IMG/VR virus record: IMGVR_UViG_2802429224_000009
Strand: one strand, 5' to 3'
Source: a virus
Taxonomy: Duplodnaviria > Heunggongvirae > Uroviricota > Caudoviricetes
DNA length: 28,217 bases
Shown: piece after piece, positions 1,102 to 26,745 of the stretch
How the letters are laid out: each line of letters opens with the position of its first letter
Numbering within the stretch: position 1 is the stretch's first letter
Position numbers and translations under genes: made by a program
Notes under the pieces: model-generated
Database searches by the model: none
The model's input: the letters and a program-made list of their open reading frames with translations, nothing else
What the model was told of the DNA's origin: nothing

Positions 1102-1422
1102 TTAGCGGGGTGATTTTTGGTTTGTTTCGGTTGAAACCTGATCGCCCTCCGAATCGAAGAAGCCATCAAGAGAGAGAGGCGGAGCAATCTGCCCCGTCGC
1201 AGCATTAGTTTGATTAAACATCACCCAATCCGAATACTTCCGAAAACGAGGATGATTCAAAATCAGGAGTAGCGTTTCTCCAGGTATCATTCTTCCCAAT
1301 ATTTCATAATTTTTGAGATTGTTTTGAGATACCCCTGTCACCTCTTCCATCTCTCTACGTGACAATCCCTCTGCCTCTCGAATCAGGCGAAGTTTTTCTC
1401 CAAGGCTTGATTTATGGATCAT
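1102..1422 (-). CDS. C: Immunity repressor, P2 C-like (HTH)
   Basis: Track ORF 1102..1440(-) with a GTG at 1440; the ATG at 1422 (MIHKSSLGEKLRLI...) fits the P2 C N-terminus spacing better. HTH segment LSRREMEEVTGVSQNNLKNYE; C-terminal KYSDWVMFNQ..TGQIAPPL resembles P2 C (KYTLWFMTNQIAPESGQIAPAL) from memory. Divergent from cox. Confidence 0.8.
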   Translation of the reverse strand: MIHKSSLGEKLRLIREAEGLSRREMEEVTGVSQNNLKNYEILGRMIPGETLLLILNHPRFRKYSDWVMFNQTNAATGQIAPPLSLDGFFDSEGDQVSTETNQKSPR

Positions 1423-1537
1423 ATGTGATCTAAACTCCACGATATTGGGTTACATGTAATACAAAACATTCAAATAGCCAAAATAAGCCTATATAAGCCA
1501 TTTTGGGCCATTTGGACGAATTAAGGAGATTACCACA
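1423..1537. promoter_or_regulatory. Lysogeny/lysis switch region between divergent C and cox (candidate Pe/Pc promoters and operators)
   Basis: Seen directly: perfect 10-bp palindrome TTACATGTAA (1450-1459); 10-bp-phased direct repeats ATAGCC (1474-1479), ATAAGCC (1483-1489) and ATAAGCC (1493-1499), the last two overlapping a -10-like TATATAAG; -35-like TTCAAA at 1468-1473; AAGGAG RBS at 1523-1528. Direct-repeat operators are the known P2 C binding mode. Confidence 0.55.
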
Positions 1538-4475: not shown

Positions 4476-4688
4476 ATGAACAAGAAGACATGGCTTCGCG
4501 CCTATGCATGGGCGCTGGTATGCGTCCTCGTTTCTCTCATTCTGTATGTGGGGCTACTCCCCAGAATGATTTCATCAGACAGCTCCTTCCTGGTATTGCT
4601 GGGCATTTTTGTCGCCTTGCTGTACCCGGCGGGCGTTGTCCGCTTTTTCAGTAACTACATCAAAGCAATTATGGAAACCAAACAATGA
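4476..4688 (+). CDS. Small inner-membrane protein (70 aa, two TM helices), partner of the SPFH lipoprotein
   Basis: Hydrophobic segments YAWALVCVLVSLILYVGLL and FLVLLGIFVALLYPAGVV; stop TGA overlaps the ATG of the SPFH gene (ATGA at 4685-4688). Confidence 0.5.
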   Translation: MNKKTWLRAYAWALVCVLVSLILYVGLLPRMISSDSSFLVLLGIFVALLYPAGVVRFFSNYIKAIMETKQ

Positions 4689-5509
4689 AAAAACTATTAC
4701 CACTCATCCCTCTCCTGATGACCACACTTCTGGTTGGCTGTGACCGCGTGGAGCCGGGCAATGTAGGCATCAAAGTCAACAAGCTGGGCGACGACAAAGG
4801 CGTCGGCGAAGTAGTTGGCGTTGGCCGCTACTGGACAGGCTGGAATACAGAGGTTTACATCTTCCCGACCTTCAAACAAATGAAGACTTACGATGAGCCG
4901 TTCAGCTTCCAGATGAGTGACGGCACAACCATCGGCTATCACATCGGCGTGGCTTACAAGGTTGATCCATCCAAAGTTACCACAGTGTTTCAGACCTACC
5001 GCAAAGGCGTGGATGACATTACTGACACTGACCTGCGCCAGAAGATCGCCGATGCACTCAACCGACTGGCCAGCAAAATGACCACCGATAAGTTTATCGA
5101 CGGTGGCAAGTCTGAACTGCTGGATTCAGCACTTAAAGACATTCAGTCAGAAATGACACCTATCGGCATTCAGGTAATGAGCCTCTCTTATGTCGGTAAA
5201 CCGGAATATCCGCCAACCGTTATCGACAGCATTAACGCCAAAGTCACGGCAAACCAGAAAACCCTGCAACGCGAGCAGGAAGTCAAGCAACGCGAAGCAG
5301 AAGCCAACATGCTGCGCGCAGAAGCTGCCGGACAGGCCGATGCCATTCGCACAAAAGCCCAGGCTGAAGCCGACGCCATTCGTTTACGCGGTGAAGCTCT
5401 GCGCCAGAATCCCGGCGTTATGGAGCTGGAAGCGATTAACAAATGGAACGGCACGCTACCGCAATACATGACCAGTAATACCGCTGTTCCGTTTGTTCCG
5501 GTGAAGTAA
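4685..5509 (+). CDS. SPFH/band-7 (prohibitin/stomatin-like) domain lipoprotein
   Basis: 274 aa. N-terminal lipoprotein signal peptide with lipobox LLVGC (MKKLLPLIPLLMTTLLVGC); central SPFH-like core; C-terminal Ala/Glu/Arg-rich coiled coil (REAEANMLRAEAAGQADAIRTKAQAEADAIRLRGEA) typical of the family. Confidence 0.8.
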   Translation: MKKLLPLIPLLMTTLLVGCDRVEPGNVGIKVNKLGDDKGVGEVVGVGRYWTGWNTEVYIFPTFKQMKTYDEPFSFQMSDGTTIGYHIGVAYKVDPSKVTTVFQTYRKGVDDITDTDLRQKIADALNRLASKMTTDKFIDGGKSELLDSALKDIQSEMTPIGIQVMSLSYVGKPEYPPTVIDSINAKVTANQKTLQREQEVKQREAEANMLRAEAAGQADAIRTKAQAEADAIRLRGEALRQNPGVMELEAINKWNGTLPQYMTSNTAVPFVPVK

Positions 5510-5515
5510 TTCAAC

Positions 5516-5539
5516 CCGGCCAGTGAAACCGCTGGCCGG
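5516..5539 (+). terminator. Stem-loop after the SPFH gene (terminator-like, no U-tract)
   Basis: Perfect 8-bp inverted repeat CCGGCCAG (5516-5523) / CTGGCCGG (5532-5539) with an 8-nt loop, 7 nt after the stop; followed by A-rich rather than T-rich sequence. Confidence 0.3.
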
Positions 5540-5576
5540 AAATATAACGAATAAACAAAAAGCCAGAGGACAGAAC

Positions 5577-5723
5577 ATGCACAAAGCCTTTGAACGATGG
5601 ATGCGCCAGCGTTACGGCAATCGCTATGACCTGACAAGGGATGTTGATGGCTACTACTGCCGCGAAATTGTGAAACGAATGTTTGAAGTGTGGTGCCACG
5701 CTCGCGGCCTGTACGCCGTGTAA
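5577..5723 (+). CDS. Small hypothetical protein (48 aa)
   Basis: ATG at 5577 (MHKAFERWMRQRYGNRYDLT...) with GAGGA about 8 nt upstream; short, so coding status uncertain. Confidence 0.3.
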   Translation: MHKAFERWMRQRYGNRYDLTRDVDGYYCREIVKRMFEVWCHARGLYAV

Positions 5724-5862
5724 TCCGTGTCACTGCCAGAAGGTTAACCCATGTATACACAAAAAAACCGCTTGCCATGCCGTAATCAGTCAGGTTACAT
5801 TTCCGCTGCACCTCATAAAACGGGTGCCGGGATTGCAACCCCCGCTGACAACTACAGCGCAC

Positions 5863-5883
5863 AACCGCGCCAGCGGTTTTTTT
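5863..5883 (+). terminator. Candidate Rho-independent terminator
   Basis: AACCGC (5863-5868) / GCGGTT (5873-5878) stem with GCCA loop, followed by a T-run through 5883. Confidence 0.4.
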
Positions 5884-5923
5884 GTGCGTACCGTATCGCC
5901 ACGTCTTTTTCGCACACGAATTA

Positions 5924-6001
5924 TGGTGGGGCGTATGGGGCCGACTTCGGTCGGGCCGGTTTCTGTAGTTGCCGGTGGTTGCAACCCCATACGCCTCGCC
6001 A
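5924..6001. repeat. Long-range inverted repeat (about 17 bp arms) enclosing a UUCG-tetraloop hairpin; candidate structured RNA or DNA cruciform
   Basis: 5924-5940 pairs with 5985-6001 (core 11 bp GGCGTATGGGG / CCCCATACGCC perfect, extended with G-U pairs); interior holds CCGAC-TTCG-GTCGG (5941-5954). Confidence 0.45.
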
Positions 6002-6061
6002 CCCAGAATTGCAACCTCTGGATGGTGAGTTTTCAAAACTTGCAACTACAGAGGCCACATC

Positions 6062-6292
6062 ATGGCAAACCGCAAACAACAGCGCGCATACGCTGCGCGT
6101 CGTCACATCCAGACTGAAATCAACCGCAGACTTTCCCGCGCATCACGCGTCGCGCAAATCATGCACATCAATATGCTGCATGAGCACAGCCACGCACTAT
6201 CAAACATTTATTCCGCCTCTGTTTTCAGCTATCTGGCGGATGATCTGCACGAGCTTCAACAGCTCATCCAGCAGCAAAACAAACTCCATTAA
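6062..6292 (+). CDS. Hypothetical basic protein (76 aa)
   Basis: ATG at 6062 with AGAGG RBS; arginine-rich N-terminus (MANRKQQRAYAARRHIQTEINRRLSR). Confidence 0.45.
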   Translation: MANRKQQRAYAARRHIQTEINRRLSRASRVAQIMHINMLHEHSHALSNIYSASVFSYLADDLHELQQLIQQQNKLH

Positions 6293-6364
6293 TTCCTGTT
6301 CCGGGCCTTTCCTGCACCTTGCGGCGGGAGGCCTTCGCACATCTGTAGTAAAGAGAATTGCAGC

Positions 6365-6754
6365 ATGATTGACCGTCACGACTTCGTAAAATGGGTGCGC
6401 ACACAGGACACCCGTCTGGCCCCAAAACTTCAGGCAATGTTTGATTTTTATCTCCGTGCCCGCGCCAGCCGGGCACGCACCACAAAACCGGAGAACGCAG
6501 ACACCCTTTATTTCACCGTGGACGACTGTTACCGCGTAGCCTTCACGCCACAAGGTCTGGCCCTGTACACCCTGACACCACACGGCGACTCCCTGCTGGC
6601 GTATTACAACTCCCCGGCCTCCGTATTTGCGGCAATGCTGGCGCATCGTACCGCTGGCGGGTGTGCCTCGCTGAGTGAATACACCACTGAATTTAACCGC
6701 CTTTCCGTCATCTTCTCGCAGGAGTGGCAGCGCGTGACGGGATACCAGCCATGA
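6365..6754 (+). CDS. Hypothetical protein (129 aa) translationally coupled to gene A
   Basis: Stop TGA at 6752-6754 overlaps the ATG of the replication gene at 6751. Confidence 0.5.
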   Translation: MIDRHDFVKWVRTQDTRLAPKLQAMFDFYLRARASRARTTKPENADTLYFTVDDCYRVAFTPQGLALYTLTPHGDSLLAYYNSPASVFAAMLAHRTAGGCASLSEYTTEFNRLSVIFSQEWQRVTGYQP

Positions 6755-9591
6755 GTGAGTTTGCATGGAGCTGGAATGAACCGCAGCCAGCTATTGATCC
6801 GGACGACTTCGCGAACTTCAGCCGGTTGCCAAAAACCGGACTGCAACGCGCCATTCGTTACTACTATGAGGCGGACAAAAAGGCTCAGGAAGAACAGGAT
6901 GCGAAGGAAGAAGCCTTTTTCGCACAATCCGCCATGGGTAAAAAACTCATGGCATCCCTTGAGGAAGCCGGGCAACGCGAAAAACTGATAAAAAACATCA
7001 TCAGTAAGCGCCAGGAAATAAAGCAAGACCCGGTGGCCTGCGCCTTTGCCGAACTGAAGGCACTTCCCGTTTATCTGCGAGACCCCCTGAGCCGCCGCCT
7101 CTCTTTTTTACGTAAGAAGCAGGAATCTGACCGCCAGAAAGGAAAAAACGCCAGGCTGGCAGAACGCTATGCACAAGGAACCCTGCTCAAAATATTCAAA
7201 CGTCTGAAACGCACTGACGGACGCTGGCTGACACCGTGTTATTGCTCCCTTGCCGGACGCGAACGCCTGGACGATTTGCTTTACCTGCCGCAGCTCAACA
7301 AACACCAGATACAGACGCTGGCCACCATGACGGCGGCGATGTTCAGCAGCACTTTTGAAACACTCTGCGATAACTTTGGCGCGACTGATGGCGAGCTGAC
7401 CATGAAAATTGCGCTGAAGGCGTATCAGATGCTGGCCCGCATGGCGTTACATCTGCACACCATGCCGCCGCATTACGAAGCACTGAGAACGGACAAAGAC
7501 CGGAAGAACGCACCGAATACGGAGCTGCTGCCGGGTGCCATCCTTCGCCTGACCTGTGCGGAATGGTGGAAACACAAACTGTGGCTTTTACGTTGCGAGT
7601 GGCGGGAAGAACAACTCCGTGCCGCCTGTCTGGTTTCCAGAAAAACATCACCCTATCTGAGCCAGGACGCGTTAAGCGAGTTTCGCGCACAGCGCGAGAA
7701 AACACGCGATTTTCTGAAAAGTTTCATGCTGGAAAATGAAGACGGGTTCACGATTGATCTCGAGACAGTGTATTACGCGGGAGTAAGTAACCCGGTTCAC
7801 CGTAAGGCAGAAATGATGGCCACCATGAAGGGGCTGGAACTTCTGGCCGAAGCCCGTGGTGACAAAGCGGTGTTTCTGACTGTCACCTGCCCGTCAAAAT
7901 ACCACGCAACAACGGAGAACGGTCATCCGAACCCCAAATGGAACGGGGCCACCATGCGCGACTCCAGCGATTACCTGGTTAACACGTTTTTTGCGGCGGT
8001 CCGCAAAAAACTGAACCGCGACGGCCTGCGCTGGTATGGCATCCGCACGGTGGAGCCTCACCATGACGGCACCGTGCACTGGCATATGATGGTCTTTGCT
8101 CATCCGGAAGAAATCGACAGCATCGTGGCCATCACCCGCGATATTGCCATTCAGGAAGATCGTCACGAACTGGGCGATGATATTACTCCGCGCTTTAAGG
8201 CGGAGTATGTCGACGGCTCAAAAGGCACACCAACCAGCTATATCGCGACCTACATCGGAAAAAACCTGGACAGCCGCGCCGTAGATGGCATCGACCCGAA
8301 AACGGGCAAGCCACGCGTTGACCACGAAACCGGAAAATCAATGGCCGAGAGCGTGGAGCGCGCCATTGGCTGGGCGCGTCTTCACCGGGTCCGCCAGTTC
8401 CAGTTCTTTGGCATCCCCTCCCGTCAGGTATGGCGTGAACTCCGCCGCCTTGCCAGCCAGATGGCACGCAACCCGGAAGGCCCGCAACGGCTGAAGGATG
8501 ATGCAATGGATGCGGTACTCGCTGCCGCTGATGCCGGGTGTTTTGCCTCCTACATTGAAAAACAGGGCGGCGTACTTGTTCCACGTAAAGACTACCTGAT
8601 TCGCACCGCCTACGACCTCGCAGATGAGCTGAACGATTACGGCGAACAGAGCGTACAGATTTACGGGATCTGGTCACCACTCATCGGGGAATCCTCCCGT
8701 GTGTGCACGCATCCGGATAACTGGAAGCTGGTAAGACGCAAACCGGAAGCGGAAGACAGCGCCCGCGAAAATGGTTTTGACCTTCAGGGCGGCCCTGCCG
8801 CCCCTTGGACTCGTGGCAATAACTGTCCCCGTGTACAGGAAACGAACAACAACGGGACAGAACAGCCGGAAGAACGGCCAGCACTGTGGCCGCAGCTCCC
8901 TGACGGCGTTGAAGTGAATGAATGGATGCGCTCACTGAAACGGCACGAACGCCGGGCGCTGATGCGTTCGCTGCGTGACAAACAGGCCAAAAACAGCAGT
9001 GCTGAAATGCAGAACTGGACACAGAGCCGCAAACAGCCACAGCCTTTGCCTGATAACCACGAGTTACTCGCTAAAGAATGGCGGGAGTCTGCTGAATCTC
9101 TCGGCCTGCATATCGGTGAACAGCAGATGCAGCACCTGTTACGGGGCGGCAGTCTGTACGTTGACGGCAGCATCATTGCACCGCAGGGATTTGAAATTGT
9201 ACGCAAACCGGATACCCGCCCGGACAGCCGAATCACGCAGCTCTGGCAACGCCTGAGCCGTAACCACGGCGTAAGCAGCACGGAGATCCGCCATAACCCG
9301 GTCGCCAGCTATCTGGAACAACTAGGGGCATCAGACCCTGAAGCCGCCGCACACCTGGCATCCACACTTCAGCAGGACCAGAACACCATGAAAACCCCCG
9401 TTACCGTGCTTTCTGACATGCTGCGCGCCATCCGTGACGCAGAGCATGCACAAAGAATCAGTGAAACCACTGAACGCGCCCGCCGCAAAGCAGACCTGCT
9501 GCGGGGTGGCCTGACCAGCGGAAACAAAAAACAGACAGAAACGGGATTCACAAATCCCGTAAATGAGCAAAAAACGCGCCGCGATATATGA
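6751..9591 (+). CDS. A: Rolling-circle replication initiation endonuclease, P2 gpA family
   Basis: Track ORF 6724..9591; probable start is the ATG at 6751 (MSEFAWSWNEPQ...). Carries the HUH-type motif (HDGTVHWHMMVF) and paired catalytic tyrosines (TSYIATYIGKN) characteristic of gpA-family initiators. At 946 aa it is longer than P2 gpA as I recall it. Confidence 0.9.
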   Translation: MSEFAWSWNEPQPAIDPDDFANFSRLPKTGLQRAIRYYYEADKKAQEEQDAKEEAFFAQSAMGKKLMASLEEAGQREKLIKNIISKRQEIKQDPVACAFAELKALPVYLRDPLSRRLSFLRKKQESDRQKGKNARLAERYAQGTLLKIFKRLKRTDGRWLTPCYCSLAGRERLDDLLYLPQLNKHQIQTLATMTAAMFSSTFETLCDNFGATDGELTMKIALKAYQMLARMALHLHTMPPHYEALRTDKDRKNAPNTELLPGAILRLTCAEWWKHKLWLLRCEWREEQLRAACLVSRKTSPYLSQDALSEFRAQREKTRDFLKSFMLENEDGFTIDLETVYYAGVSNPVHRKAEMMATMKGLELLAEARGDKAVFLTVTCPSKYHATTENGHPNPKWNGATMRDSSDYLVNTFFAAVRKKLNRDGLRWYGIRTVEPHHDGTVHWHMMVFAHPEEIDSIVAITRDIAIQEDRHELGDDITPRFKAEYVDGSKGTPTSYIATYIGKNLDSRAVDGIDPKTGKPRVDHETGKSMAESVERAIGWARLHRVRQFQFFGIPSRQVWRELRRLASQMARNPEGPQRLKDDAMDAVLAAADAGCFASYIEKQGGVLVPRKDYLIRTAYDLADELNDYGEQSVQIYGIWSPLIGESSRVCTHPDNWKLVRRKPEAEDSARENGFDLQGGPAAPWTRGNNCPRVQETNNNGTEQPEERPALWPQLPDGVEVNEWMRSLKRHERRALMRSLRDKQAKNSSAEMQNWTQSRKQPQPLPDNHELLAKEWRESAESLGLHIGEQQMQHLLRGGSLYVDGSIIAPQGFEIVRKPDTRPDSRITQLWQRLSRNHGVSSTEIRHNPVASYLEQLGASDPEAAAHLASTLQQDQNTMKTPVTVLSDMLRAIRDAEHAQRISETTERARRKADLLRGGLTSGNKKQTETGFTNPVNEQKTRRDI

Positions 9592-9667: not shown

Positions 9668-10627
9668 ATGAAAATTTGTATCGACGACGGCTCCACCAAC
9701 ATCAAGCTGGCATGGACTGAGAACGGCGAACGCCGCAACGCCATCAGCCCGAACAGCTTCAAGTCGGAATGGTCTGCGCCGTTCGGTGGCACGCAGCCCG
9801 CGAACTACATGCTTGATGGCGTGCGCTATGGTTTTGATCCGGTCAGCGATCGCTTTGTCCAGACGACCGACACGCAATACCAGTACAGCGATGTGAATGT
9901 CATTGCCATTCATCATGCGCTGGTCAAATCAGGCATCACGCCACAGGAGGTGGATGTGGTTGTCACCCTGCCACTGAGCGAGTATTTCGACACAAACGCA
10001 CAGCCGGACATGACCAACATCAACCGCAAAAAAGCGAACGTTATGCGCCCGGTGGAGTACCAGAACGGCGAGGCATTCACTATCCGTAACGTGCGGGTTA
10101 TGCCTGAATCCATTCCGGCTGGCTTTAAAGCACTGGCTGACATGAGTCCGTTTGAATCCCTGCTGATTGTGGATTTGGGCGGAACCACGCTGGATGTGGC
10201 AAAGGTTCAGGGGCAACTGGCAGGTATCAGCCAGGTGTTTTGCGATCCACACGTAGGCGTTTCCCTGATGGCCGATGCCGTACTGTCGGTGATGGCCACC
10301 AACGGTATGCGCACCAGTCACCACATCGCCAATACCATTATCGAACATCGCCACGATGAAGCCTGGCTGCGCCAGCACATCCACAATGACGCGCATTACG
10401 CCAGCCTGATGGCGGTTATTCGTGAAAAGGAAGAAACACTGAAACAACGCGTGATCCGCGCGCTGGCGGGTTTTTCGGGTTACGGGCGGGTGATGGTTGT
10501 CGGTGGAGGGGCGGAGATTGTGGCACCCGCTATCCGCGAAGCCTGCGGAGTTAATGCGACTTTCATCGCGGACGGGGTGCCACAGTTTGCTCTGGTTAAT
10601 GGGCTGTACGCAATGGACAAGGAGTAA
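9668..10627 (+). CDS. parM: Actin-like segregation ATPase, ParM/StbA family (type II partition)
   Basis: 319 aa, AAGGAA RBS. N-terminus MKICIDDGSTNIKLAW closely matches R1 ParM as recalled (MLVFIDDGSTNIKLQW); phosphate-2 motif IVDLGGTTLDV; C-terminal VMVVGGGAEI...LVNGLYA also ParM-like. Confidence 0.9.
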   Translation: MKICIDDGSTNIKLAWTENGERRNAISPNSFKSEWSAPFGGTQPANYMLDGVRYGFDPVSDRFVQTTDTQYQYSDVNVIAIHHALVKSGITPQEVDVVVTLPLSEYFDTNAQPDMTNINRKKANVMRPVEYQNGEAFTIRNVRVMPESIPAGFKALADMSPFESLLIVDLGGTTLDVAKVQGQLAGISQVFCDPHVGVSLMADAVLSVMATNGMRTSHHIANTIIEHRHDEAWLRQHIHNDAHYASLMAVIREKEETLKQRVIRALAGFSGYGRVMVVGGGAEIVAPAIREACGVNATFIADGVPQFALVNGLYAMDKE

Positions 10628-26113: not shown

Positions 26114-26745
26114 AACTTCCGGAGATCCCTGAATTCCCGCTCCCCACCTGGATGAATAAAGGCGAGCCGTTAACGCTGGCACATTCATCGCATCGCTACT
26201 GGGAAAAGGTATACAGCTGGCTGACGTGGCCACTACAGCAGATTGATGTCGACACCTGCGCAGAGCCTTTACTTAACCTGCTGGCTTATCAGCGCAATAT
26301 CACCCGATTTAAAGGTGAGCCGGTTTCGTTATTTCGCTTAAGAGTGAAACACGCGTTTATTAACGCTCAGGACTCTGGCGAACGCGCCGGCTTCGAACGC
26401 ATCTTTAAGCGTCTTGGCGTGGGAGACGTTAAAACACTGGAACGGCAACTGCAGCATGACTGGGACGTTATTTTACTGCGCATTAATGACACCCAGTTAA
26501 GTGAAAACAACGCGCTGATGATGCAGCTCGTGCGCCAGTATGGTCGTACCTGCAGGCGCTATTTCTTTCAGGTAATCAATACAACCACTGCCCGGCTGAC
26601 AGCCGGCACATTCGATGGCCATTACAGGTATCACACAGCAGAAGCAACGGTGAGAAAGGACACCATCTGGTTAACCGCTTCGCTACAGGCAGGACATTAC
26701 GGCCTGTCCGTGGAACATTACACATTACAGGCAGATGAAGCATGA
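26110..26745 (+). CDS. Tail protein I-like (P2 gpI family)
   Basis: GTG start at 26110 overlapping the J stop, GGAGGTG RBS; lies directly upstream of the tail fibre gene; loose pattern similarity to P2 gpI. Confidence 0.55.
   Translation: MKLPEIPEFPLPTWMNKGEPLTLAHSSHRYWEKVYSWLTWPLQQIDVDTCAEPLLNLLAYQRNITRFKGEPVSLFRLRVKHAFINAQDSGERAGFERIFKRLGVGDVKTLERQLQHDWDVILLRINDTQLSENNALMMQLVRQYGRTCRRYFFQVINTTTARLTAGTFDGHYRYHTAEATVRKDTIWLTASLQAGHYGLSVEHYTLQADEA

Follow-up and report, generated by a model that had tools for sequence, protein, structure and literature searches.

Adjacent isrK and C4 RNA genes make up a probable P4/P1-type antisense-RNA immunity module in a P88-like prophage

Immediately upstream of a gene starting at position 6062 of the window (the whole 28,217-nt stretch of caudoviral DNA analyzed here, IMG/VR record IMGVR_UViG_2802429224_000009) lies a region, 5724–6061, that is rich in secondary structure and repeated motifs. 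We asked what this region is. A preliminary description, made from the letters alone, had proposed a structured small RNA, a regulator-binding array controlling the downstream operon, or an origin or iteron-like element. The features on which these proposals rested were all recovered at the same positions: a T-tract terminator (5863–5883; stem 5863–5878, then a T7 run), a long stem pairing 5924–5940 with 5985–6001 (17 nt, 88% complementary), a CCGAC-UUCG-GUCGG tetraloop hairpin (5941–5954), and four plus-strand TTGCAAC boxes at 5833, 5979, 6009, and 6040, spaced 146, 30, and 31 nt apart.

The first of the three proposals is the one that held. An Rfam scan, which the preliminary description had named as a check, matched two RNA families, both above their gathering scores: isrK (RF01394), full length with 60.1 bits against a gathering score of 50, and C4 (RF01695), with 81.1 bits against 45 over model positions 1–87 of 87. 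The region is made up of these two adjacent RNA genes, both on the plus strand, isrK first and then the C4 antisense RNA, the latter holding both the 17-bp stem and the UUCG hairpin. No match to c4-a1b1 (RF03163) was obtained anywhere in the window with E allowed up to 10, and weak matches to CRISPR-DR31 and IMPDH (E ~10) are noise. The isrK plus C4 module is a hitherto unannotated copy of a well-known phage RNA switch and an ordinary member of its family; we are confident, short of certainty, that 5724–6061 is a P4/P1-type antisense-RNA immunity module and that its host is a P88-like (Xuanwuvirus, P2-family) prophage. Its RNA elements are as follows.

5772–5801, plus strand: predicted sigma-70-like promoter (TTGCCA, 18 nt, TACATT)
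5808–5883, plus strand: IsrK / P4 seqA / c4-a1b1-type small RNA, with two hairpins, a linker, and an intrinsic terminator
5863–5883, plus strand: predicted Rho-independent terminator of IsrK, coinciding with the terminator hairpin of the Rfam isrK model
5919–6006, plus strand: C4 / P4 CI-type antisense RNA (Rfam RF01695)
5924–5940 with 5985–6001, plus strand: outer stem of C4
5941–5954, plus strand: hairpin 1 of C4
5955–5976, plus strand: hairpin 2 of C4

The promoter-like site stops 6 nt before the isrK match, and transcription from it would start at about 5808, the first base of that match. Judged from sequence, this site and the terminator delimit the ~77-nt RNA expected for the IsrK class. 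Relatives of the P88 clade keep both promoter hexamers, and farther relatives carry TTGACG/TAAAGT-type hexamers at the same place; the site is a putative functional promoter. A 23-nt inverted repeat pairs 5753–5775 with 5869–5891, its upstream arm being an A-tract beside the –35 hexamer. The idea that this repeat acts as a promoter-dependent antiterminator of the IsrK terminator was rejected, since nothing comparable was found in 46 other modules, a comparison that is imperfect for the clade of the window, where the script chose a different T-run.

The 88-nt C4 core folds with –49.9 kcal/mol (z = –5.1), and its minimum-free-energy structure equals the Rfam structure. Covariation in related modules, likewise suggested beforehand as a check, backs this structure: compensatory (double) changes were found in 16 of the 24 C4 pairs over 60 sequences. 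The search pattern prescribed the loop of hairpin 1 and the stem of hairpin 2, so that the invariance of these two parts is uninformative.

The TTGCAAC(C) boxes are sites of RNA–RNA pairing, namely b1 in IsrK, b' in C4, and b2 downstream, with the fourth box overlapping a site of another kind, a2. They resemble direct repeats only because GGTTGCAACC is palindromic. The preliminary description had treated the four as a single class; this is right for the boxes at 5833, 5979, and 6009, which form one set (b1, b', b2), but not for the box at 6040, which overlaps a second set. That second set, which had been missed, consists of CAACTACAG at 5849 and 6043 and its complement in the C4 loop at 5963–5971, three copies in ~200 nt compared with 0.09 expected in the whole window. 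The TTGCAAC heptamer is unenriched over the whole window (9 copies, 8.4 expected), and its clustering is non-random, 4 of the 7 plus-strand copies falling inside 214 nt (P ~5e-5 under random placement). The pairing elements are as follows.

5829–5844, plus strand: b1 site, core UUGCAACC at 5833–5840, in the loop of IsrK hairpin 2 (box 1)
5849–5857, plus strand: a1 site CAACUACAG, within the linker of IsrK and complementary to the loop of C4 hairpin 2
5960–5971, plus strand: a' recognition loop UUUCUGUAGUUG of C4 hairpin 2, from complementarity and fold
5977–5984, plus strand: b' single-stranded recognition segment GGUUGCAA, within the palindrome GGUUGCAACC (box 2)
6009–6021, plus strand: b2 target site, UUGCAACC plus flank (box 3)
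6042–6054, plus strand: a2 target site GCAACUACAGAGG, its 5' end overlapped by box 4 (6040–6046)

An inverted-repeat search showed the middle part of IsrK to be complementary to the downstream C4 region through a1 and b1. The b1 site is 88% complementary over 16 nt to 5973–5988 (b' in C4) and covaries with b' across relatives; b2 is 85% complementary over 13 nt to 5972–5984 (b'); and a2 (6042–6052) is 100% complementary over 11 nt to 5962–5972 (a'), with a duplex energy of –18.6 kcal/mol. The duplex of a C4 probe with IsrK reached –38.7 kcal/mol and that with the downstream leader –38.0 kcal/mol, and 0 of 500 shuffles were as good in either case. The Shine–Dalgarno sequence GAGG (6051–6054) lies inside a2, 7 nt before the ATG at 6062. 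Two further candidate sites were discarded. A CUGUAGU at ~6343 that resembles a' is unchanged in the related locus L068 despite a different a' there, and is a chance likeness; a strong complement of the a' loop at ~26440–26452 lies inside a 211-aa ORF with nothing else supporting it, and is probably also due to chance.

The gene whose ribosome-binding site is overlapped by a2 encodes a homologue of epsilon, the derepression (anti-repressor) protein of P4, with 33% identity over 51 aa (E = 2e-9), and is itself a putative anti-repressor gene, whose product may inactivate the phage C repressor, encoded by ORF 1102–1440. Its equivalents in P88 and RefSeq are labeled 'derepression protein'. The downstream genes are:

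6062–6292, plus strand: first gene of the putatively regulated operon, epsilon-like, 76 aa (Pfam PF25738 Derepression, E = 5e-8)
6365–6754, plus strand: orf129
6724–9591, plus strand: replication endonuclease gpA (PF05840, E = 1e-129)

The order of these three genes is the same in P88, and they are probably co-transcribed as one unit. NCBIfam gave no match for the epsilon-like protein or orf129, and PHROGs lists both as function-unknown groups.

The sites change together with the RNA that recognizes them. In a sample of 60 distinct a'/b' combinations from related modules (53 a' and 33 b' alleles), complementarity of at least 7 nt to the module's own loop was seen at b2 in 92%, at a2 in 77%, at b1 in 95%, and at a1 in 65% of modules, compared with 2–4.5% of heterologous loop/site pairs (2% for b'/b2). 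Between modules, the specificity alleles of a and b reassort freely. In ~50 of 54 relatives a2 overlaps the Shine–Dalgarno sequence, with the start codon 6–11 nt downstream. The 30–31-nt phasing singled out in the preliminary description is present, and its meaning is a fixed family architecture, b2 lying 9–15 nt and a2 37–48 nt after C4 in nearly all relatives.

These data bear on whether the boxes act as DNA, as iterons or an operator array for gpA or another phage protein at an origin or in transcriptional control. The grounds for such a reading are the four similar heptamers in 214 bp, three of them at 30–31-bp spacing, just upstream of the replication operon. However, in P88 a' is kept, b' has become GTGGAAA, and b1 and b2 alike read TTTCCAC, so that the boxes there are two TTTCCAC and one inverted GTGGAAA, although the P88 and window gpA proteins are 86% identical overall and nearly identical past residue 130. 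It is thus the antisense RNA that the boxes follow, rather than the replication protein. Moreover, 33 box sequences occur over the 60 modules, always matching the b' of the adjacent RNA, and the same module stands beside unrelated replication proteins in P4-like satellites, lambdoid Stx and Gifsy phages, and P1-sized contigs. The P2 origin is located inside gene A. A DNA-level element is in our judgment extremely improbable, and the origin or iteron proposal is given up, the boxes being complementary sites and not direct repeats. Control of the downstream operon survives in spirit, by RNA–RNA pairing at the ribosome-binding site of the 6062 gene rather than by a regulator-binding array.

How the antisense module would work can be proposed from this arrangement. 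The promoter at 5772–5801 would drive a transcript whose first 76 nt are an IsrK/seqA-type small RNA. Most transcripts would end at the IsrK terminator, and those reading through would carry the C4/CI-type RNA (~5924–6005), which would be cut from the transcript with RNase P making its 5' end, by analogy with P1 C4 and P4 CI. RNase P processing and Rho dependence are features of P4/P1-type systems; in P4-type immunity operons the RNA controls a Rho-dependent terminator, timm. Mature C4 would expose a' (UUUCUGUAGUUG) and b' (GGUUGCAA) and pair with b2 (6009–6016) and a2 (6042–6054) on transcripts from its own operon; the duplex at a2 would cover the Shine–Dalgarno sequence of the epsilon-like gene and block its translation, probably with Rho-dependent polarity on orf129 and the replication gene A, as in P4 and P1. 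IsrK, with its copies of the targets, b1 (5833) and a1 (5849), could bind up C4, by sequestration in cis or titration in trans, and so turn expression on. The C4 mechanism is summarized in PMC12197685, and the C4 and c4-a1b1 families were defined in PMC2864571. A titration/activation role was shown for Gifsy-1 IsrK, which pairs with the downstream region and activates anrP translation, and Hfq binding and trans-activation of downstream translation are experimental properties of IsrK (PMC4825925).

In the interpretation of the Gifsy-1 authors, the same pairings make up an mRNA structure that is inhibitory in cis and is opened by IsrK (PMC4825925). Applied to the window, with activation as the sole mode of control, the C4-like stretch would be part of a self-inhibitory leader ('structure A') and not a trans-acting repressor: the IsrK part would pair in cis with the downstream part, and short IsrK would open the leader in trans to allow translation. 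This interpretation is backed by mutational data at the prototype isrK locus, and extra STnc1160 failed to counteract IsrK in Gifsy-1 (PMC4825925); given the authors' cis model and this result, repression by the C4-like RNA of IsrK-type modules is a hypothesis. The centroid fold of the 268-nt window transcript also pairs the a1/b1 region of IsrK in cis with the a'/b' region of C4. What activation alone leaves unexplained is the compact, covarying, tRNA-like 80-nt core, with a fold identical to that of processed P1 C4 and P4 CI, the second covarying target pair b2/a2 on the downstream Shine–Dalgarno sequence, and the stable processed RNA STnc1160 in Salmonella (PMC4825925). We consider it rather unlikely that activation is the whole story, and the antisense switch and the Gifsy-1-type model are largely compatible, not exclusive.

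The statement in the preliminary description that the region holds no convincing ORF needs qualifying: ORFs of 205 and 144 aa on the plus strand and of 285 aa on the minus strand cross it. The first of these is:

5751–6368, plus strand: candidate P4 eta-like read-through ORF, 205 aa, starting upstream of the IsrK promoter

IsrK, C4, and the epsilon-like gene (in frame +1) all lie within it, and at its end the TGA stop shares an ATGA (6365–6368) with the start codon of the next gene. The eta-like frame is open in P88, in L068 and L126, and in the diverged L065, where the chance of an open alternative frame is ~0.05–0.09 per lineage. The role of this ORF is hypothetical. One might suppose that the region simply codes for an 'Ash family' protein (ORF 5751–6368 or 5683–6117), with the RNA structure incidental. 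The equivalent of the 205-aa product is annotated 'ash family protein' in the RefSeq prophage of E. coli STEC711, Pfam Phage_ASH matches translations of the module region in P4 and a Stx2 phage and, weakly, ORF 5683–6117 (E = 0.025, below cut-off), and a forward frame is open across the module in 39 of 59 loci, commoner than expected from shuffles (38%). Yet the substitutions are compensatory at the RNA level. Among relatives C4 is 74–81 nt long, with all three residues modulo 3 seen, and the a' loop is 9–15 nt; because these lengths vary, no single reading frame is conserved family-wide. The 'cI protein' ORF of P4, the anchor of Phage_ASH, overlaps the CI RNA, and P4 CI is established as an RNA (PMC4825925). 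A protein-coding region with incidental RNA structure is very unlikely on this evidence, whereas translation through the region, as a process, may matter, as with P4 eta.

The pairing of isrK or a1b1 with C4 recurs in one Stx2 phage and in most of the 14 IMG/VR and P88 loci scanned, and across loci the gene that comes first after the module is P4 kil-like, epsilon-like, or a member of the Bro-N, Rha, ANT/AntA, or ORF6N family. A 901-bp query (window 5500–6400) found matches in 1560 of 5426 complete E. coli genomes; coverage of the query reached 80% or more in only 8 of these, and many matches represent the module as carried by phages of other types. In literature searches, no account of an isrK plus C4 module in P88 or P2-like phages turned up. 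The inspected records of P88 and related E. coli prophages lack an annotation for either RNA gene and leave the region blank or show a spurious minus-strand CDS (P88) or an 'ash family protein'; two RNA genes should stand there instead. P2-family helper-type phages likewise carry the RNA immunity/anti-repressor cassette of P4, P1/P7, and Gifsy-1, placed immediately before the replication gene. The 53 a' and 33 b' variants, with their reassortment, make a ready catalogue of immunity specificities. Current understanding of the mechanism is unchanged by these data.

As a tentative extension, which may well prove wrong, the P4-type cassette in the early operon of P88-like P2-family phages could gate an epsilon-type anti-repressor and gene A, with lytic transcripts escaping by eta-like translation and with satellite/helper RNA cross-regulation possible. 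C/Cox phages would then gain a second, RNA-based layer of immunity. Lytic transcripts from an upstream early promoter would escape as ribosomes translate 5751–6368 through IsrK, C4, and epsilon, and this translation would couple into orf129/A at the ATGA overlap. Since P4-like satellites share the cassette and alleles reassort, cross-regulation of derepression and replication genes between helper and satellite could occur.

Among known systems, P22 sar RNA/ant and 186 Tum are functional analogues, examples of post-transcriptional or conditional anti-repressor control in temperate phages, 186 being a P2-family phage with an anti-repressor. The sar RNA is a true cis-antisense transcript and Tum is LexA-controlled, and they share neither sequence nor structure with the window module.

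The Gifsy-1 isrK-orf45 (STnc1160)-anrP locus has the same succession of an isrK match, a C4 match, and an anti-repressor gene, the C4 match falling exactly at orf45/STnc1160 in an Rfam scan. There too the middle of IsrK is complementary to the downstream RNA, and a promoter with a leaky terminator gives short and long isoforms; its authors remarked on the resemblance to P4 seqA/CI and described STnc1160 as a processed RNA (PMC4825925). Gifsy-1 differs in being lambdoid, with an output, AnrP, that acts on antQ, and in that orf45 ends on the anrP start, whereas in the window the ORF opened by the corresponding AUG (5923) runs on into the epsilon-like gene and stops at 6117.

Like the window, P1/P7 immI (c4, icd, ant) has an antisense RNA processed from the operon that it represses, processing in the window being proposed by analogy. 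The two also share a pair of recognition elements pairing at the ribosome-binding site of the first gene, an anti-repressor output (putative here), and an immunity specificity set by the a'/b' alleles (PMC12197685, PMC2864571). In contrast to P1/P7, the upstream a1/b1 element of the window is a terminated IsrK-type RNA (RF01394) that falls below the c4-a1b1 RF03163 threshold, and the regulated protein is epsilon-type, not Icd/Ant.

The P4 immunity region (seqA, CI RNA with seqB, seqC, kil/eta, epsilon, alpha) differs from the window in its host: P4 is a satellite with an alpha primase, whereas the window belongs to a full P2-family phage that has gpA and a C/Cox switch. The first regulated gene is kil in P4 and the epsilon homologue itself in the window, where no kil homologue was found at the locus; the eta-like ORF of the window is read in a different frame from the first gene and stops at the start codon of the one after it; no similarity of orf129 to P4 ORF151 could be detected; and the specificity alleles differ. 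The two regions nevertheless contain the same two Rfam families in the same order (CI, 74.9 bits on C4; seqA, 60.8 bits on isrK and 44.1 bits on c4-a1b1). They share the logic of a1/b1, a'/b', and b2/a2, with a2 on the Shine–Dalgarno sequence of the first gene, an epsilon homologue downstream, a replication gene at the end of the operon, and a long ORF, eta in P4 and the candidate eta-like ORF 5751–6368 here, that runs from upstream of the inner promoter across the RNA module.

The Rfam scan proposed in the preliminary description was run over the whole window. Only two matches exceeded the gathering score, and both were full-length, on the plus strand and within 5724-6061, so that a structured small RNA, one of the options raised there, is now represented by two families. 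The elements of this module are:

5772-5801: promoter-like site (TTGCCA, 18 nt, TACATT), ending six bases before the isrK match
5808-5883, plus strand: isrK (RF01394), 60.1 bits against a threshold of 50
5829-5844: b1, in the loop of IsrK hairpin 2, complementary to b' (box 1)
5849-5857: a1, complementary to a'
5919-6006, plus strand: C4 antisense RNA (RF01695), 81.1 bits against a threshold of 45
5960-5971: a', exposed loop of C4 hairpin 2, UUUCUGUAGUUG
5977-5984: b', exposed single strand of C4, GGUUGCAA (box 2)
6009-6021: b2, complementary to b' (box 3)
6042-6052: a2, complementary to a' over 11 of 11 bases, with box 4 at its 5' edge
6051-6054: Shine-Dalgarno (SD) sequence GAGG, 7 nt before the ATG at 6062; a2 extends into it

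The T-tract terminator (5863-5883), the 17-nt stem (5924-5940 with 5985-6001) and the CCGAC-UUCG-GUCGG hairpin noted earlier are all present; the first is the IsrK terminator, and the other two belong to the C4 fold, and MFE prediction gives this same fold (-49.9 kcal/mol, z = -5.1). The promoter-like site is kept in relatives. A 23-nt inverted repeat (5753-5775 with 5869-5891, 87% complementary) has as its arms an A-tract just upstream of the -35 hexamer and the 3' half of the IsrK terminator with its U-tract. It could be an antiterminator for transcripts from upstream, or an UP-element coincidence; no equivalent was found in the other modules.

The four TTGCAAC boxes (5833, 5979, 6009, 6040) were confirmed. 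The heptamer is not enriched over the whole window (9 hits vs 8.4 expected); four of its seven plus-strand copies nevertheless cluster inside 214 nt, with P about 5e-5. Another set of repeats, rarer than the first, had been overlooked: CAACTACAG at 5849 and 6043, with its reverse complement at 5963-5971, for which only 0.09 copies are expected across the whole window. Complementary sites look like direct repeats because GGTTGCAACC equals its own reverse complement. Predicted duplexes of the C4 recognition region with the downstream leader (-38.0 kcal/mol) and with IsrK (-38.7 kcal/mol) were equalled by none of 500 dinucleotide shuffles. The b' allele GGUUGCAACC (5977-5986) is a perfect 10-nt palindrome, most other alleles being non-palindromic; this would allow pairing between two C4 molecules, or between b1 and b2 (self-duplex tile, -20.5 kcal/mol). 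Elsewhere, CGGCAACTGCAG at 26440-26452, within a 211-aa ORF, complements the C4 a' loop and arm with one G-U pair (-21 kcal/mol), probably by chance.

Searching IMG/VR with a pattern for the conserved C4 core gave 120 loci; with the window, phage P88 and P4 added, 93 modules with complete C4 architecture were recovered, carrying 60 distinct a'/b' combinations. The covariation check suggested earlier showed that 16 of the 24 pairs in the C4 consensus structure have undergone compensatory double changes; the search pattern fixed the hairpin-1 loop and the hairpin-2 stem, which are thus uninformative. Specificity was scored as exact complementarity of at least 7 nt between a'/b' and a site at the expected position. 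The own-module probe succeeded at b2 in 92% of cases (heterologous probe, 2.0%), at a2 in 77% (2.0%), at b1 in 95% (4.5%) and at a1 in 65% (3.0%). This covariation of a'/b' with their flanking sites is the key comparative result. The analysis as a whole demonstrates RNA identity, structure, targets and specificity of the module. In almost all loci b2 lies 9-15 nt and a2 37-48 nt downstream of C4, and these near-fixed distances account for the 30-31 nt 'phasing' described previously. In about 50 of 54 loci a2 overlaps the SD and a start codon lies 6-11 nt downstream. First genes after C4 in all modules include P4 kil-like (10) and epsilon-like (7) genes and members of the Bro-N, Rha, ANT/AntA, ORF6N, DUF6124, DUF3077 and Tad2-like families; isrK or c4-a1b1 accompanies C4 in most of 14 scanned IMG/VR and P88 loci.

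Across 60 modules, a' and b' alleles reassort (one a' with up to three b', one b' with up to six a'), spanning P4-like, P2-like and lambdoid contexts, a pattern suggestive of modules being exchanged or of diversifying selection acting on immunity specificity. One viral contig (L057) carries two C4 matches (266-463 and 8633-8720), one with its own isrK. In P1-sized contigs (L008, 93 kb; L069, 90 kb; also L098, L120 and L121) the first gene after C4, at the P1 icd position, encodes 85 aa and matches Pfam Tad2-like (Thoeris anti-defence 2-like domain, E = 4e-6).

The closest relative, P88, provides the cleanest control. There a' is unchanged, b' is GTGGAAA and TTTCCAC stands at both b1 and b2; the fourth 'TTGCAAC' box is retained because a' is kept. 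The replication endonuclease gpA is 86% identical overall to that of the window and near-identical after residue 130 (epsilon-like protein, 92%). The boxes therefore track the RNA rather than the replication protein, which argues strongly against the origin or iteron-like element and the regulator-binding array that had also been considered for the region. In P88 (L001), GenBank and RefSeq place a 'hypothetical protein' CDS (5033-5221, minus strand) across isrK/C4, an annotation that is almost certainly spurious.

The window represents a P88-like prophage (genus Xuanwuvirus, P2 family); its nearest records are phage P88, at 94% identity, and numerous E. coli prophages. Its gene content around the module is:

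integrase gene
1102-1440, minus strand: HTH repressor
1538-1825: Cox-like gene, with a series of small early genes after it
4685-5509: SPFH lipoprotein gene, after the small early genes
5577-5723: 48-aa ORF, immediately before the module region
6062-6292, plus strand: epsilon-like 76-aa ORF, after the module region
6365-6754: orf129, between the epsilon-like gene and gpA
6724-9591: replication endonuclease gpA (PF05840, E = 1e-129)
9668-10627: ParM-like segregation ATPase gene, directly after gpA

The epsilon-like gene, first after the module, matches Pfam Derepression (E = 5e-8), and its product shares 33% identity with P4 epsilon (E = 2e-9). The ParM-like ATPase gene after gpA, together with the gene next to it, which in P88 is a partition protein gene, hints at a plasmid-like maintenance option in an integrase-bearing P2-family prophage.

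In the scheme we propose, the promoter at 5772 would drive IsrK, mostly terminating at 5883, and a C4-like RNA would arise from read-through transcripts. RNase P excises C4 in P1 and P4, and by analogy may do so here. Pairing of b'/a' with b2/a2 on operon transcripts would occlude the SD of the epsilon-like gene, and the untranslated RNA would then probably be open to Rho termination ahead of orf129 and gene A. IsrK, carrying b1 and a1, would sequester C4 in cis or titrate it in trans, turning the operon on, and the epsilon-like protein would then inactivate a C-type repressor. We infer here how the RNA is processed, in which direction regulation works, the part played by Rho and what the epsilon-like protein acts on. 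Chief among the alternatives is the interpretation of the Gifsy-1 authors, who invoke cis structure only; it relies on identical pairings and can for the most part coexist with the C4 scheme. Mutations in Gifsy-1 showed that the middle part of IsrK pairs with the downstream region and that short IsrK activates anti-repressor translation in trans; read-through gives rise to a processed RNA, and the same authors noted the similarity of IsrK to P4 seqA, where pairing of CI RNA with seqA/seqC leads to termination (PMC4825925).

Long mechanical ORFs span the region. Pfam PF10554 (Phage_ASH) matches translations of exactly the isrK-C4 RNA region, among them P4's obsolete 'cI protein' ORF and an N-terminal extension belonging to the annotated 'antirepressor' of a Stx2 phage (window ORF 5683-6117, weakly, E = 0.025). 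RefSeq names the 205-aa equivalent in E. coli STEC711 'ash family protein', a CDS that displaces the epsilon-like gene. Phage_ASH and 'ash family protein' (examples: window 5683-6117 and 5751-6368; loci L122, 8168-8584, minus strand; L124, 1646-2797; L126, 1355-1972) appear to be built on isrK-C4 translations, and the family probably represents, for the most part, an RNA gene taken for a protein. C4 length varies over 74-81 nt with every residue modulo 3 present and the a' loop over 9-15 nt; given these variable lengths and substitutions compensatory at the RNA level, a family-wide conserved protein frame was rejected.

ORF 5751-6368 (plus strand, 205 aa) deserves attention as a process, not a product. 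From a start upstream of the IsrK promoter it runs in frame +1 through IsrK, C4 and the entire epsilon-like gene, and its TGA overlaps the orf129 ATG (ATGA). The arrangement is common to P88, L068, L126 and the diverged L065. In L065 about half of the epsilon residues are identical, and the gpA-like gene itself comes next. When epsilon was recoded synonymously, the frame stayed open in no more than 5-9% of the trials for each lineage; family-wide, 39 of 59 modules have an open forward frame from IsrK to a2, compared with 16 of 59 for the reverse strand and 38% among shuffles, the loci being non-independent. These statistics are suggestive, not conclusive. For P4 eta, Forti et al. in 1999 reportedly found translation from the upstream promoter PLL alone, and eta is said to let PLL transcripts escape immunity-specific termination. 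By this analogy ORF 5751-6368 is a candidate eta equivalent, with translation-dependent escape from RNA immunity; if true, this would explain how early-operon transcripts pass the embedded terminator to reach gene A.

We conclude that the finding is real, statistically solid and clearly explained, and that the element is of a known kind. What is new is only that it lacks annotation here, that a P2-family phage carries it ahead of an epsilon homologue and gene A, and that its b allele happens to be palindromic. C4 and c4-a1b1 have been defined bioinformatically (PMC2864571), and the P1/P7 C4 mechanism is summarized elsewhere (PMC12197685). In the P4 immunity region the C4 match is the CI RNA (74.9 bits), the seqA region matches isrK (60.8 bits), and c4-a1b1 scores 44.1 bits, slightly under its gathering score of 46.7. 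In Gifsy-1, the prototype locus, isrK lies at 34240-34316, and a C4 match at 34131-34214 coincides with the published 'orf45'/STnc1160, immediately upstream of anrP; in an Stx2 phage, isrK and C4 stand upstream of a Rha anti-repressor.
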